From the sequence record NC_054922.1: a stretch of 64,000 bases of DNA, one strand, 5' to 3'. The DNA comes from Escherichia phage vB_EcoM_KAW1E185. A model generated the notes under the pieces. That model had not been told where the DNA came from, searched no databases, and saw only the letters and a program-made list of their open reading frames with translations. Position numbers and translations under genes: made by a program. This document shows, piece after piece, positions 806 through 8,161 of the stretch (within the stretch, counting starts at the first letter, position 1; every line of letters starts with the position of its first letter).

Positions 806-1200
806 CGTGATTCCTTAACAAATTTCATAATTTCATCAAATTCATACGCAGCAAGTTTAAGCTGATGTTCCTTTTTAATCTTTTTACACTGTGCTTTCCA
901 ATCACGTACGCGTTTACGATAATGCCTTCCTTGATACCAGTATCCTACCCAATTTACAGGTATTAATAAAAATGGAACTATCATTGGAAGAATTAATGTT
1001 GACGCAAATATTATATTAGATTCAATATCAGTCATAACATCTATAACTATTCCAACCCCCAGTAGAATTACAAATGATACAGCTATTACAGGACCTATTA
1101 ATACATCAGTAGAAATTATCTGACGCTTTAATTCATACTTCAACGGTTTACTTGGAAGGTATAGTGATGGTTTTGACATATTCTCTACATTCCTTAACAA
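787..1200 (-). CDS. small membrane protein, 137 aa (start may be the internal Met at 1179)
   Basis: ORF track; two hydrophobic segments; C-terminal tail resembles that of the 443..805 product. Confidence 0.45.
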   Translation of the reverse strand: MLRNVENMSKPSLYLPSKPLKYELKRQIISTDVLIGPVIAVSFVILLGVGIVIDVMTDIESNIIFASTLILPMIVPFLLIPVNWVGYWYQGRHYRKRVRDWKAQCKKIKKEHQLKLAAYEFDEIMKFVKESRCKSQN

Positions 1201-1756
1201 ATTTTTCTAATAATAAATCGCTTTCAAAATTGGGATTTTCTACGAATTTATCAAAAAGATCATCAACAATAGTTAAGATATTCTTTTTACTAAGAATACG
1301 TTTATTTTCATGCTTCGTTTCAGAATCAACTATAAGAGTAAAGAAATATTTCTTGCCCTGAAATTTTACAGTAGTATCAATATAGAATAAATTTGACTTT
1401 TGTAAATTACGTTTAAACCATGCATCACTTAAACTATAAACGCCAAGATAATCATAATCGTCGTTTAAATAACATACTGTCCATTCAGGAGAAATGAAAT
1501 CAGTAAATTCAACATCAAAATCGCATGTTAATAAATGAATTGATTCAATACTGTTAATAAGTATTCCAGGACGTATTAAAGACTTTTTACCTCTAGAAAA
1601 TCTTCCAGAAAGGCTTTCATCAGTTTCATATGAAGAACCCCAATAATAATTACGTCCTTCTGCCATACGTTTAAGAGCATTTAATAATTGGTCTGGAACA
1701 TCAACTTGTCTTTGGAATTCTTCAAACATTGAATTGAAATCACTTTGCATTCTCAT
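1148..1756 (-). CDS. hypothetical protein, 202 aa
   Basis: ORF track; no motif recognised. Confidence 0.55.
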   Translation of the reverse strand: MRMQSDFNSMFEEFQRQVDVPDQLLNALKRMAEGRNYYWGSSYETDESLSGRFSRGKKSLIRPGILINSIESIHLLTCDFDVEFTDFISPEWTVCYLNDDYDYLGVYSLSDAWFKRNLQKSNLFYIDTTVKFQGKKYFFTLIVDSETKHENKRILSKKNILTIVDDLFDKFVENPNFESDLLLEKFVKECREYVKTITIPSK

Positions 1757-1797
1757 TCCTATTTACTCCAAGTAATAGGGGTCGAAGCCCCTTATCA

Positions 1798-2391
1798 TTA
1801 TTTCAGAGAATTAATATATTCCTGAACATCGGCAGAGGTGGTTTCAACCCCAGAAATATTACCGTTAAAGGTTTCAACTCGAGCAAGAGTATCTTCAATA
1901 TCAACCTTAGTCAGCGCTGCAATTTCAACTACATCATCGGCAGTACTAATTCCAAGGGCATTCGCTGCACGAGTTTCACGGATATATTCCAATTTAACTG
2001 CAAGTTCTTGGCGAGCATCATCTAACTCAACTACTTTCTTGGCGATTTCAATTCGCATTTCAGCATAACCATCAGCTTTAGTAGTCAACTGCTCAGCTGT
2101 TCGACGATATAGTAAACCAAGTTTAGCATGCATTGTTACATCTTGACCTTCAGAAAGAAGCTTGCGAATTTCACGCTCTTTTGATTCAGCCTGTTTATTC
2201 TTTTCAATAACAAGTTCACGAATACGTTTTTCTTCATTAATAGATTTAACAGAAGCAGTTTTTAGATCTTTAATTTTATCAAGCAATTTTGCTGCTGCGG
2301 CAGTATACTGCTCTTCAACAGATAGATTTTTAGCCATAGCAGAACCAAGTTTAGTGCGAATAAACTCAACAATTTTCTTCAGTGTGTTCAT
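1798..2391 (-). CDS. coiled-coil protein with PspA/IM30-like architecture, 197 aa
   Basis: ORF track; long K/E/R-rich heptad-like helices; architecture only, no sequence search run. Confidence 0.55.
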
Positions 2392-3147: not shown

Positions 3148-3178
3148 CCAAAAAGCCCCAACCGAAAGGTTGGGGCTA
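3148..3178 (-). terminator. intrinsic terminator (10-bp GC stem, GAAA loop, U-tract); copy 1 of a duplicated 36-bp element
   Basis: Plus strand reads ataccaaaaagccccaaccgaaaggttggggctaag at 3145..3180; sits just downstream of the stop of the 3185..3658 gene. Confidence 0.6.
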
Positions 3179-3184
3179 AGAATG

Positions 3185-3658
3185 TTATTTGATTTGTTTA
3201 GCAGACCAAATGCGGTCTTTGATAATTTTTTGGATGTCTTCAACATATTCAAGAGAGTGAACATGTGGGTTATCTTTGAAACTATAAGCACGAGCTAGCT
3301 TTTGGCCTTCAGTTTTGATTACTAAAAGCTCTTTAAGGATAGCTTCATATTTGGAGATAATTCCTTTAACGATATTTTTCTCTTGTGTGACTTTAGGATC
3401 TGCTTTAGGAGCAGGTTTACCCGAAGCCTTTGCAAAAGCAGCGCCAGTAGCAACTAAACTTTTCCAGGCCATACTAACTGCATTCCCTGTAAATCCTTCG
3501 GCTTTCATATCACGAGCAAATTGGAATCGTGATTCATCGGAAGCATCTTTATAGGAATATTTACCCGCGGCAATGGCTGCTTTTGCGACAGCTTGAATTT
3601 CGGTGCTAGATGCTTCATTTAACACCGCTTCATTTAAAAATTGAGCATATGATTTCAT
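3185..3658 (-). CDS. internal-protein-like protein with N-terminal capsid-targeting leader (MKSYAQFLNE), 157 aa
   Basis: ORF-track ORF trimmed to the ATG at 3658 (AGGAAA Shine-Dalgarno upstream); leader resembles T4 internal-protein leaders ending in a gp21 L/I-x-E cleavage site; late promoter upstream. Confidence 0.6.
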   Translation of the reverse strand: MKSYAQFLNEAVLNEASSTEIQAVAKAAIAAGKYSYKDASDESRFQFARDMKAEGFTGNAVSMAWKSLVATGAAFAKASGKPAPKADPKVTQEKNIVKGIISKYEAILKELLVIKTEGQKLARAYSFKDNPHVHSLEYVEDIQKIIKDRIWSAKQIK

Positions 3659-3696
3659 CTTATTTCCTGTTTTAATTTGTAGATTTAATATACTAA

Positions 3697-3704
3697 TATT
3701 TATA
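3697..3704 (-). promoter_or_regulatory. late promoter TATAAATA upstream of the 3185..3658 gene
   Basis: Plus strand reads tatttata, i.e. TATAAATA on the minus strand, about 39 nt upstream of the ATG. Confidence 0.5.
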
Positions 3705-3732
3705 CCAAAAAGCCCCAACCTTTCGGTCGGGG
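3705..3732 (-). terminator. intrinsic terminator; copy 2 of the duplicated 36-bp element (loop inverted to TTTC)
   Basis: Plus strand reads ataccaaaaagccccaacctttcggtcggggctaag at 3702..3737; ends the tRNA/stable-RNA transcription unit. Confidence 0.6.
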
Positions 3733-3740
3733 CTAAGCCT

Positions 3741-4412: not shown

Positions 4413-4488
4413 TGGTCGAGGCAGTAGGGATCGAACCTACGACCTAGGACTTAGAAGGTCCTTGCTCTTCCTTCTGAGCTATGCCCCG
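4413..4488 (-). tRNA. tRNA-Arg (anticodon UCU)
   Basis: Hand-folded cloverleaf: anticodon arm AGGAC-CTTCTAA-GTCCT, T-loop GGTTCGATCC, encoded CCA. Confidence 0.85.
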
Positions 4489-4492
4489 TAAT

Positions 4493-4568
4493 TGGGGTGA
4501 CCGATGGGAGTCGAACCCATGACTACGAGAATCACAATCTCGAGTTCTACCAACTGAACTACGGCCAC
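4493..4568 (-). tRNA. tRNA-His (anticodon GUG)
   Basis: Anticodon arm CGAGA-TTGTGAT-TCTCG, T-arm ATGGG-TTCGACT-CCCAT, discriminator C, encoded CCA. Confidence 0.8.
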
Positions 4569-4682
4569 ATTAATACCTACTCCAACAATCAAGATGTCTT
4601 CACACGAAATTAAGAGAAGAGTGATCAGTTCAACCCCTATAATCGCGTCAAGTAGATATTAATGTGACAGTTGTCACAAATT

Positions 4683-4757
4683 TGGCGGACGTGATAGGAT
4701 TCGAACCTATAACCAATCGCTTAACAGGCGATCGCTCTGCCATTGAGCTACACATCC
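4683..4757 (-). tRNA. tRNA-Asn (anticodon GUU)
   Basis: Anticodon arm ATCGC-CTGTTAA-GCGAT, T-loop GGTTCGAATCC, encoded CCA. Confidence 0.8.
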
Positions 4758-4761
4758 AAAT

Positions 4762-4848
4762 TGGTGGGGAGTGGTGGAGTCGAACCACCCGAGTCGCAAT
4801 GACAATGAATTTACAGTCCACACCGCTACCTCTACGGGATAACTCCCC
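4762..4848 (-). tRNA. type II tRNA, probably tRNA-Tyr (anticodon GUA); D-arm non-canonical
   Basis: 87 nt; acceptor GGGGAGT/ACTCCCC, loop CTGTAAA, long variable arm, T-arm GGTGG-TTCGACT-CCACC, encoded CCA; anticodon stem has two G-U pairs. Confidence 0.6.
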
Positions 4849-4857
4849 AAATTAATT

Positions 4858-4932
4858 TGGTGGCCCTGGGTGGAATTGAACCACCATCTGGCGATTATGA
4901 GTCGCTTGCTTGAACCTTCCAGCTACAGGGCC
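4858..4932 (-). tRNA. tRNA with anticodon CAU (Ile2 or Met), in the position of T4 tRNA-Ile
   Basis: Acceptor GGCCCTG/CAGGGCC, anticodon loop CTCATAA, T-loop GGTTCAATTCC, encoded CCA. Confidence 0.75.
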
Positions 4933-4933
4933 T

Positions 4934-5009
4934 TGGTGCTGATTGACGGAATCGAACCGCCGACCTTCTCATTACAAGTGAGTTGCTCTACCTACTAAGC
5001 TAAATCAGC
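4934..5009 (-). tRNA. tRNA-Thr (anticodon UGU)
   Basis: Acceptor GCTGATT/AATCAGC, anticodon loop CTTGTAA, T-loop GGTTCGATTCC, encoded CCA. Confidence 0.85.
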
Positions 5010-5014
5010 AAAAC

Positions 5015-5104
5015 TGGCGGAGGCGATAGGATTTGAACCTATGAGTCGCCGGAGCGACTGCCGGTTTTCAAGACCGGTGCATTAAACCACTCTGCCACGC
5101 CTCC
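5015..5104 (-). tRNA. tRNA-Ser (anticodon UGA), type II
   Basis: 90 nt; anticodon arm CCGGT-CTTGAAA-ACCGG, long variable arm, T-loop GGTTCAAATCC, encoded CCA. Confidence 0.85.
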
Positions 5105-5110
5105 AAATAT

Positions 5111-5761
5111 TTATATATTGTTAATTTGATTTAGAATTCTTTTTGCTTGAGTATGACTTACGCCAATATGCTTAGCATATTTAGACAATTCGCCACGTTT
5201 AGAAAAATCATATAATTTAGAAATTTCTATTCTTCTTTTTCTTTCATCCGCAGAAACTTTTGCTTCGTTTGCTTTTGCTATTTTACGTTTAGCTTCTTGA
5301 GAATGAGTTTTACCAGCAAAGCCATTCTTCATTAATCCATTTGAAGACCATCCTTTTAATTTTCCGTTAGAATGTGCCTTTTTAACACCCAATGAAATTA
5401 ATTCGCGTTGCTGATCTGTCATAGGATAATTATTTATATGGTCCCATCCACCTTCACCTCCAAGTTTTAAATTATACACATCTGGTCTATTTAAAAACTC
5501 TTCTGTGACAATATTTTTCTCGGCTTCAAGCATAGATTCTTTATCGTCAAAATACTCTAATATTTCTTTAGAAAAATTTTCTATACCATATTTATCTTGG
5601 GCTCTTTTTAATAATTTACCAGAACCCATATATCCATCATCTAAATTTTCGGTAGAATGCACACCAATATAAATTTTATTATTAATTTTATTTGTTATTT
5701 TATAAAGATAAAAATGCATATCAGTCCCTAATAAAGAACTGAGCGTCTCACGACGAGTCAT
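5111..5761 (-). mobile_element. segB: GIY-YIG homing endonuclease (SegB-like) wedged between tRNA-Gly and tRNA-Ser
   Basis: N-terminal GIY-YIG module YLYKITNKINNKIYIGVHS plus basic C-terminal region; lies inside the tRNA array as T4 segB does; true start may be the internal Met at 5719. Confidence 0.8.
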
Positions 5762-5765
5762 AAAT

Positions 5766-5839
<74 letters not shown>

Positions 5840-5844
5840 AAATT

Positions 5845-5931
5845 TGGTGCGAGAAGTGGGACTCGAACCCACAAGGAAATCATTCCGCAGCATTTTAAGT
5901 GCTGTGCCTTTACCAATTTGACCATTCTCGC
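5845..5931 (-). tRNA. tRNA-Leu (anticodon UAA), type II
   Basis: 87 nt; acceptor GCGAGAA/TTCTCGC, anticodon arm CAGCA-CTTAAAA-TGCTG, T-loop GGGTTCGAGTCCC, encoded CCA. Confidence 0.85.
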
Positions 5932-5932
5932 G

Positions 5933-6005
5933 CTGGGAATAAAGGACTCGAACCTTTGCATCTAGCAGTCAAAGTGCTATGCCTTACCAACTTGGCTAAT
6001 TCCCA
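5933..6005 (-). tRNA. tRNA-Gln (anticodon UUG), no encoded CCA, abuts tRNA-Leu
   Basis: Acceptor TGGGAAT/ATTCCCA, anticodon arm TAGCA-CTTTGAC-TGCTA, T-loop AGGTTCGAGTCCT; only 1 nt separates it from tRNA-Leu. Confidence 0.8.
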
Positions 6006-7524: not shown

Positions 7525-7555
7525 ATAGTATCACTACCCTATCTAAAAGTAAACT
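7525..7555 (-). promoter_or_regulatory. early-type promoter with -10 TACTAT set inside a perfect 10-bp inverted repeat (agatagggta / taccctatct)
   Basis: Minus strand reads GTTTACT-N17-TACTAT; inverted-repeat arms at 7515..7524 and 7535..7544. Confidence 0.5.
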
Positions 7556-7788
7556 TATTTTTTACGAAAAATTGATTTATATTTATCAGCCCATTTCTCG
7601 ATGACTTTTTCTGGTCCATAGATAACAAAATAATCACCAAACTCTTCACCACCGAGTTGACCGAAATTATCTAATGCATCACGAAGAACTCCATGAGGCA
7701 TTTCGCCCATTTTATCTTTCTTACCAATGTAAATAAACTCAACTTTTACATCAGCAGCTTCAGCAATAAATTCTTGATACGTTTTCAT
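7555..7788 (-). CDS. small internal-protein-like protein with capsid-targeting leader MKTYQEFIAE, 77 aa
   Basis: ORF-track ORF trimmed to ATG 7788 (GGAGA Shine-Dalgarno); leader is the canonical T-even internal-protein leader ending in the gp21 cleavage motif I-A-E. Confidence 0.55.
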   Translation of the reverse strand: MKTYQEFIAEAADVKVEFIYIGKKDKMGEMPHGVLRDALDNFGQLGGEEFGDYFVIYGPEKVIEKWADKYKSIFRKK

Positions 7789-7824
7789 TTTATTCTCCAA
7801 TTTCACATTTGTTTTGATAGGGCA

Positions 7825-7854
7825 ATAGTATCACTACTAAAACCCCGTGTAAAC
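7825..7854 (-). promoter_or_regulatory. early-type promoter (GTTTACA-N17-TACTAT) for the 77-aa leader-bearing gene
   Basis: Shares the repeated core aatagtatcactac and the motif gtaaacaactttgtgaaatt with the ipI promoter. Confidence 0.5.
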
Positions 7855-7873
7855 AACTTTGTGAAATTGTTTA

Positions 7874-8161
7874 TTACAAAAGATTTTTAGCAATAATCTT
7901 GAGATGTGCTGCAGAAATGTGTTTAGCTTTAAACAACGCAGTTTCTTCGGCAGGAGAGATAACGATTGTAGCACCATCCTTTTTAGCAGACCACCCATCA
8001 CCTAGGTAAACAGTACCTTTGATTTCTTCGCCATCAACCAGACTAATCATTGGTTTACCTTCTCGTCCTTTATTTGCTTTAATAACTTCAGAAGTAAGAG
8101 TAGCTTCGGTAATGGTAGAAACCGGGGTAGTTGTAGAAGTAAATTCTTTAAATGTTTTCAT
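7874..8161 (-). CDS. ipI: internal protein I (IPI), injected inhibitor of GmrS/GmrD-type restriction
   Basis: 95 aa; leader MKTFKEFTSTTTPVSTITE followed by ATLTSEVIKANKGREG..., recognised as T4 IPI. Confidence 0.9.
   Translation of the reverse strand: MKTFKEFTSTTTPVSTITEATLTSEVIKANKGREGKPMISLVDGEEIKGTVYLGDGWSAKKDGATIVISPAEETALFKAKHISAAHLKIIAKNLL

Follow-up and report, generated by a model that had tools for sequence, protein, structure and literature searches.

The protein encoded by gene e.6 of T4-type phages is very probably a diverged member of the PspA/IM30 family, and hence of the ESCRT-III superfamily. The copy of e.6 that we analyzed is a 197-residue open reading frame (ORF) from Escherichia phage vB_EcoM_KAW1E185 (sequence record NC_054922.1). 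It lies within a 64,000-nucleotide stretch of this genome, and we will call the whole stretch the window. We established homology over residues ~1-147 of e.6, which correspond to the N-terminal helix of PspA (alpha0) and to its alpha1-alpha2/3 hairpin. For the joint statement that e.6 is a compact and highly diverged member of the PspA/Vipp1 family and that it has a membrane-stabilizing role, we estimate a probability of about 60%.

The window is a segment of a T4-type phage genome (genus Tequatrovirus). Over its first 6 kb, it shares 94-98% identity with phages such as AV122, AR1, and teqdroes, and its gene order is that of the e-tRNA region of T4. The 197-residue protein is identical to T4 e.6 at 195 of 197 residues, it is assigned to phrog_1203 ("unknown function"; E = 1e-87), and it has homologs in 1,098 of 50,697 phage records. 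Because of these observations, we consider the ORF to be a real gene, rather than a chance ORF, and to be the ortholog of e.6. In a time-course omics data set for T4, e.6 is classified as "early RNA / middle protein" (supplement of PMC9697503). This placement in a protein class implies that the protein is actually made in T4, and it shows that expression is pre-late. It also argues against e.6 being a late virion or scaffold component, which we disfavor.

Homology of e.6 to PspA and Vipp1

The T4-type sequence falls below the Pfam threshold, so its membership in the family rests on transitive evidence and on profile-profile comparisons. The transitive link runs through divergent, full-length members of the e.6 family. 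These bridging proteins match a profile of 31 close homologs of e.6 (A1; the T4 clade, which has low diversity) with E values of ~3e-21 to 7e-20. Two of them, P0068 and P0066, have E values of 2.9e-21 and 2.9e-20 against A1, and of 7e-16 and 1.3e-12 in full-length BLASTP comparisons with the window's protein. Both are relatives of the Ackermannviridae type, and P0068 is 77-85% identical to proteins from phages of that family. In Pfam, P0068 and P0066 match PspA_IM30 (PF04012) with 39.0 bits (E = 8.9e-10) and 35.1 bits (E = 1.4e-8), which are above the family's gathering score of 33.9 bits. The matches span residues 6-146 of these proteins and positions 2-143 of the Pfam profile, and the next-best Pfam families are at E >= 0.03, with no competitor below that. 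Other bridging proteins also match PF04012: Vi01_046c from Salmonella phage Vi01 (30.0 bits, E = 4.9e-7), P0069 (22.3 bits, E = 1.1e-4), and P0067 (22.1 bits, E = 1.3e-4).

When the profile of the T4 clade was cut to residues 1-147, it matched residues 5-151 of P0068 and P0066 at 55-57 bits. Therefore, the link to PspA runs via the same region and not via a shared but unrelated domain, which rules out a domain-chaining artifact. We regard the bridging proteins that exceed the gathering score of PF04012 as decisive for homology.

We also compared the two families directly with hhalign. For e.6, we used an extended family alignment of 42 sequences (A3), with identities down to 18%. For PspA, we used an alignment of E. 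coli-type PspA, Synechocystis Vipp1, Clostridium and Arthrobacter plasmid PspA, and two metagenomic PspA proteins. (Bacterial genome contigs gave only PspA from Enterobacterales, at 78% identity or above; the diversity of this alignment comes from the plasmid and metagenomic PspA proteins and from Vipp1.) The two alignments matched with 94.5% probability and E = 7.6e-8 over 145 co-linear columns, with residues 1-147 of e.6 aligned to residues 1-155 of PspA. An independent profile-profile run of e.6 against PspA/Vipp1 gave 93% probability. As controls, we reversed the e.6 alignment, which gave 1.3% probability, and we shuffled it by column (20 times) or by heptad block (20 times), and each shuffle gave 1.2% or less. 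With the controls at or below 1.3%, as against 93%, the signal cannot be attributed to composition or to heptad periodicity.

Separate segments of the protein also align. Alpha0 by itself (residues 1-22) aligns in register with residues 1-22 of PspA at 92% probability (P = 5e-7), and the hairpin of e.6 by itself aligns in register with the hairpin of PspA (P = 2.3e-4). With the T4 clade only, the comparison to PspA gives 55.6% probability (P = 1.2e-4) over 169 co-linear columns. That alignment pairs RVETF in e.6 with RFESF in PspA, which is suggestive only. In the reverse direction, we compared a hidden Markov model of PspA to the 77 ORFs in the window of at least 80 amino acids, and e.6 was the sole match (E = 1.1e-4; the next best was at 0.16). 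Similarly, hhalign of PspA against the window's ORFs gave 52% for e.6, over 174 columns, and 1.9% or less for every other ORF. An initial annotation of this DNA, which was made from the sequence alone, had read the protein as PspA/IM30-like, and it had named the lack of any profile match to PspA or ESCRT-III as grounds to drop that reading. Such a match was found, its controls were clean, and the bridging proteins and the predicted structure point the same way.

The AlphaFold2 model that we built from the extended alignment has a mean predicted local distance difference test (pLDDT) of 83 and a predicted template modeling score (pTM) of 0.67. It is ~85% helical, with helices at residues 2-22, 25-80, 86-145, 151-160, 166-174, and 186-196. 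Charged residues make up 34% of the protein (33 lysines and arginines, and 34 aspartates and glutamates). Both values agree with the earlier description of the protein as almost wholly charged helix. The amphipathic segment that had been noticed at the N-terminus corresponds to helix 2-22: residues 2-19 have a hydrophobic moment of 0.45 and a net charge of +4. (The moments for alpha0 of E. coli PspA and of Synechocystis Vipp1 are 0.42 and 0.57.) We predict that this helix is the equivalent of alpha0, which is described as the membrane-binding helix of PspA and Vipp1 in published accounts (PMC8281802, PMC11746142, PMC12358876). The arms of the predicted hairpin are ~56 and 60 residues long and meet at a tip of residues 81-85 (EGQDV). 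Within the C-terminal region, T174, F175, Y192, and the terminal S-L-K are conserved in the e.6 family.

We compared the model to 350,542 PDB chains with Foldseek. Vipp1 occupied ranks 1-10 (E = 4.4e-4 to 2e-2, probability 1.00), and 6zvs_A had a template modeling score of 0.69 when normalized to the target. Archaeal CdvB2 filaments followed Vipp1, at ranks 11-13. A first and poorer AlphaFold2 model gave the same ordering.

Direct sequence searches found a small and closed family. Searching 1.84 billion representative proteins with the A1 profile yielded 45 representatives, with full-length members of ~195-209 amino acids, and an iterated word-indexed search with the extended alignment added no new members. 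The T4-type protein and 31 close relatives had only scattered, sub-threshold coiled-coil matches in Pfam, and a scan of NCBIfam found nothing useful. Against PDB sequences, three of the five weak matches of the A1 profile were to Vipp1, and these were co-linear from residues 4-7 to residues 142-144. Those matches were a first hint of the relationship to PspA.

Several results weigh against our view of e.6. The Vipp1 matches just mentioned are at E = 1.3-3 only. The window's protein has no match to PF04012 even at E <= 10, and PF04012 is absent from the top 25 of the 82 Pfam families that members of A1 match, when the families are ranked by the number of members matching. Comparing the protein to all PDB sequences with phmmer gave no significant match, and none of the representative proteins that the A1 search detected at E <= 1e-3 was a canonical PspA. 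The C-terminal 50 residues of e.6 show no significant similarity to alpha4/alpha5 of PspA (0.6% in a segment comparison with hhalign). The AEDP linker is absent from the junction of alpha0 and alpha1: e.6 has K21-N-L-S-V-E-E27 instead, which has only a lysine and acidic character in common with the AEDP linker. The genes adjacent to e.6 have no match to any Pfam family at E <= 0.001, and we found no partner genes that resemble pspB, pspC, pspF, or liaI among them. Also, the neighborhood is not conserved in RB43 or in Aeromonas phage 65. Finally, T4 can do without its e-tRNA region in laboratory hosts, which means that whatever benefit e.6 brings must depend on conditions.

If the similarity to PspA were convergent, then e.6 would be a generic coiled coil or helical hairpin (perhaps an adaptor or scaffold for early proteins) whose composition and heptads happen to resemble those of PspA. 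The lack of a direct match to PF04012 for the T4-type sequence and the many weak coiled-coil matches in Pfam are consistent with this. But reversed and heptad-block-shuffled profiles keep the composition and the periodicity and yet lose the signal, all methods put the alignment in register from residue 1 onward, and alpha0 matches by itself. Convergence would also leave unexplained why the bridging relatives pass the cutoff for PF04012 without a competing family and why the ten best Foldseek matches are all to Vipp1. We consider convergent similarity to be largely excluded, and a generic coiled coil is highly improbable.

Proposed role of e.6 and alternatives to it

Like PspA, Vipp1 (IM30), and LiaH from PF04012, e.6 has alpha0 followed by a long alpha1-alpha2/3 hairpin at the same positions, and it is of similar size (197 amino acids instead of ~220). 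But e.6 is encoded by virulent phages, while PspA family proteins are encoded by cells. The AEDP linker of PspA is replaced in the e.6 family by KN(L/T)S(V/I)E(E/D). The C-terminal part of e.6 is shorter than in PspA and is not significantly similar to alpha4/alpha5, with their F-E-x-x-E motif and polymer contacts, and e.6 lacks the C-terminal extension of Vipp1. Also, in contrast to Psp and Lia operons, there are no genes for PspB, PspC, PspF, LiaI, or other known partners near e.6.

Proteins that are more distant from e.6 share less with it. For archaeal and eukaryotic ESCRT-III proteins (CdvB/CdvB2 and Snf7/CHMP), the Foldseek matches do not reach significance by themselves (E ~ 0.08-0.09), and ESCRT-III proper lacks the PspA-type register of alpha0. 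Where we examined the window, we saw no ATPase partner similar to Vps4 or CdvC, although the whole window was not scanned for one. Proteins with BAR domains (I-BAR, F-BAR, and FAM92A1) are 5-11% identical to e.6, and neither sequence nor profile comparisons support the membership of e.6 in these families. Foldseek listed just one F-BAR entry (ranks 34 and 45, E = 0.5-0.6). BAR domains are three-helix dimers without the layout of alpha0 and hairpin.

By analogy to PspA and Vipp1, we tentatively propose that e.6 stabilizes or seals the inner membrane by docking with alpha0 and forming a polymer. We hold this specific role to be possible, at slightly less than even odds. In published accounts of PspA and Vipp1, contact with the inner membrane is made by alpha0, and it is the hairpin that drives the formation of a protective or remodeling polymer (PMC8281802, PMC11746142, PMC12358876). 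After infection, e.6 would use its cationic amphipathic alpha0 to dock on the inner membrane from the cytoplasmic side, and, like PspA and Vipp1, it would self-assemble through the hairpin to form a coat or polymer. The polymer would then seal or stabilize the stressed membrane and keep the proton-motive force up. Likely sources of stress would be DNA injection, superinfection, the accumulation of holin and other phage membrane proteins, and host defenses that attack the membrane, such as abortive-infection effectors. T4 shuts down transcription in its host and breaks down the host's DNA. Because host transcription is shut off, the sigma54/PspF-dependent Psp response of the host cannot be induced, and a phage-borne copy makes sense for this reason.

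The same evidence of homology would suit an ESCRT-III-like remodeler that serves the phage's own program, such as the timing of holin lysis or lysis inhibition, the membrane sites of prohead assembly, or vesiculation. PspA, Vipp1, and ESCRT-III proteins are described as remodeling membranes (PMC8281802, PMC11746142). In T4-type genomes, e.6 belongs to a block whose last gene is e, for lysozyme, and there are small membrane proteins near the e.6-like genes of T4, Vi01, and two metagenomic contigs. But e.6 does not keep its position relative to e, or to any membrane protein, in RB43 and Aeromonas phage 65, and e.6 is expressed early to middle, not late. As far as we know, no lysis-timing or head-assembly phenotype maps to e.6. 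We consider a remodeling role of this kind to be unlikely.

Another role, which we find quite unlikely, is that e.6 does not protect the membrane but is a mimic or decoy of the host's PspA that co-assembles with, or competes against, PspA or its partners. The similarity is limited to residues ~1-150 of PspA, which is the part that mediates contacts with proteins and membranes; the C-terminus of e.6 differs from that of PspA; and e.6 is expressed early to middle, all of which would suit a decoy. There is also a potential link to the cyclic oligonucleotide-based antiphage signaling system (CBASS). Within a few kb of e.6, on either side, are 57B/Acb1 and vs.4, which we take to be anti-CBASS genes of T4, and both loci are present in gene maps of the region. 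On the other hand, the identity of e.6 to the host's PspA (~11-19%) is low for co-polymerization, interfering with regulation by PspF would be pointless after the shut-off of host transcription, and the decoy role lacks direct evidence. In type II CBASS, the cyclase is conjugated to the host's PspA via Cap2, and CBASS activation is slower with PspA present (PMC11153139). Given this published conjugation, e.6 might be an extra sink for conjugation by Cap2, or it might disturb the PspA platform, and so blunt the activation of type II CBASS. But the lysines at which Bacillus PspA is conjugated in the published work are C-terminal, in a region that e.6 does not share, and in E. coli that work did not observe PspA among the conjugation partners (PMC11153139). 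In another form of this idea, e.6 subverts immunity. The host's PspA polymers are the platform to which the type II CBASS cyclase is tethered through Cap2, and PspA reorganizes upon infection; e.6, as a decoy, sink, or scrambler of this platform, would leave the cyclase tethered and silent. We consider this action of e.6 to be improbable.

Distribution and genomic context

Proteins of the e.6 type are conserved across T4-like phages (Straboviridae) and ViI-like phages (Ackermannviridae). In GenBank, the orthologs of e.6 are labeled as hypothetical or, in many records, as "host specificity protein" (for instance H16, H20, H21, and H26). The latter label has no support from the sequence, the fold, or the timing of expression, and we reject it. 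The e.6 protein of RB43 is annotated as just 97 amino acids in NC_007023 (5001-5447 of L086), but tblastn similarity spans residues 52-197 of the query, and a second RB43 record matches e.6 over nearly its full length. The short annotation is probably due to a frameshift, a sequencing error, or a mis-called start. The most divergent e.6-like protein, P0084, is labeled by NCBI as "Proteus mirabilis hypothetical protein." It is encoded on a 15.4 kb metagenomic contig (Logan contig ERR13427392_104; L090) within a block of same-strand ORFs that lack Pfam matches, and this block resembles an unrecognized phage or prophage region.

Canonical PspA is rare in deposited phage genomes: among the 50,697 records, we found it only in two unverified fecal contigs. 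A motif-limited scan of IMG/VR identified eight contigs that are classified as viral and that carry PspA_IM30 genes (118-127 bits to PF04012), and some of these contigs are 260-360 kb. They include L094 (4001-4678 of a 67 kb contig, 127 bits) and L100 (3989-4708 of a 361 kb contig, 118 bits), as well as L095-L099 and L101. The neighbors of these genes are ORFans, and L100 also encodes a lysin-like protein of 1,022 amino acids with GH25, LGFP, and NlpC/P60 domains. Since these contigs are classified as viral, uncultivated and possibly jumbo phages may carry ordinary PspA. The IMG/VR proteins are full-length, canonical, and ~24-33% identical to E. coli PspA, and they belong to a different lineage from the e.6 clade. 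Our searches, including those by gene name and by accession, turned up no paper that deals with e.6 or with PspA or ESCRT-III proteins encoded by phages, but our coverage of the literature was limited, and there could be an earlier mention elsewhere. Recent surveys of the PspA/ESCRT-III family do not mention phage-encoded homologs. The e.6 clade is new as a compact, partner-less, virus-borne clade of PspA-like proteins that is distinct from the canonical PspA of viral contigs.

Coordinates of e.6, its parts, and nearby features are given in Table 1. The gene is on the minus strand; the initial annotation gave no strand. The initial annotation had placed e.6 immediately upstream of an array of membrane proteins. 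This is partly correct: the gene that follows e.6 is e.5, for which no transmembrane segment is predicted, and the transmembrane proteins e.4 and e.3 lie beyond e.5. Between e.6 and e.5 lies a stem-loop that we interpret as an RNA structure. It is probably not a terminator, because the coding strand lacks a run of T after the stem; it may be an element for RNA processing or stability.

Table 1. Features in and around e.6 (positions are within the window)
Feature	Position	Strand	Remarks
e.6 ortholog, coding sequence	1798..2391	minus	ATG start at 2391; 197 aa + stop; very probably a diverged PspA/IM30-family protein
Shine-Dalgarno-like TAAGGAAA	2396-2403	minus	AAGGA core ending 6 nt before the ATG of e.6; read from sequence
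Residues 1-22, predicted alpha0 equivalent	2326..2391	minus	cationic amphipathic helix; helix 2-22 in model
Residues 25-80, first hairpin arm, predicted PspA alpha1 equivalent	2152..2319	minus	helix in model, pLDDT 79-98; in register by hhalign
Residues 86-145, second hairpin arm, predicted PspA alpha2/alpha3 equivalent	1957..2136	minus	helix in model, pLDDT 85-95
Residues 146-197, family-specific C-terminal region	1801..1956	minus	three small helices in model (151-160, 166-174, 186-196)
GC-rich stem-loop AGGGG-CTTCGA-CCCCT	1775..1795	minus	directly 3' of the e.6 stop codon; no T-run on coding strand
e.5	1148-1756		
58-aa ORF (phrog_5461)	2435-2611	minus	directly upstream of e.6
Terminator-like hairpins	3154-3177 and 3711-3734	minus	near-identical; AGCCCC[A/G]ACC...GGTTGGGGCT then TTTTGG
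ORF between the hairpins	3185-3658		starts MKSYAQFLNEA
tRNA genes (ten)	4413-6005		split 7+3
216-aa ORF	5111-5761	minus	separates the two groups of tRNA genes
Small ORF	7555-7806	minus	starts MKTYQEFIAEA
Small ORF	7874-8161	minus	starts MKTFKEFTSTT

The e.6 gene of RB43 is flanked by nrdD and nrdG, and that of Aeromonas phage 65 adjoins gene 31. Homologs of e.5, e.4, and e.3 are not beside e.6 in either phage, so we rejected the idea that e.6-e.5-e.4-e.3 is a conserved module (PspA with a membrane-anchor operon). The e.6-like gene of Vi01 is between primase-helicase and ligase genes. Unrelated predicted membrane proteins adjoin e.6-like genes in Vi01 (4631-5382 of L093) and in metagenomic contigs (5097-5933 of L090 and 6928-7296 of L091), but not in RB43. 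A recurrent pairing of a PspA-like gene with a membrane protein is possible.

At the position of T4 e.7 (111 amino acids), the window has an unrelated-looking ORF of 58 amino acids, which is a local gene replacement. Further along, the ORF that is bracketed by near-identical terminator-like hairpins begins with a sequence like the one that targets the internal proteins of T4 to the capsid. From its sequence, this region (3154-3734) looks like a cassette-type locus for internal proteins. The N-termini of two other small ORFs, at 7555-8161, also resemble those of internal proteins, and these ORFs would fit the hypervariable Ip region of T4-like phages. The set of ten tRNA genes differs from the eight of T4, and the ORF that splits it is annotated as a homing endonuclease in related phage records (segD in AR1).

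Implications for phage biology

T4 is the reference virulent phage, but a function is still lacking for many T4 genes, among them all of the e.2-e.8 block. Placing e.6 in the PspA/IM30 family gives a concrete and testable role to a gene that is found in over 1,000 sequenced T4-like and ViI-like phages, many of which are used in therapy. For the ESCRT-III field, e.6 adds a minimal member, with 197 residues and no partner, and its differing C-terminus should help to ask what membrane binding and polymerization require.

If e.6 were a decoy, it would be a new route by which phages interfere with PspA-linked defense. If it were the immunity-subverting mimic, it would be a third and mechanistically new anti-CBASS or anti-"membrane-alarm" factor in the accessory region of T4. 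With the membrane-stabilizing role that we prefer, the placement of e.6 bears on old observations about how T4-infected cells reseal and stay energized after injection, superinfection, and lysis inhibition. By analogy with PspA and Vipp1, our results suggest that a factor for maintaining the inner membrane may be encoded by T4-like and ViI-like phages themselves. Once a large virulent phage has silenced transcription in its host, the host is unable to induce its "phage shock" effector against membrane stress, and such phages may supply a version of this effector themselves.

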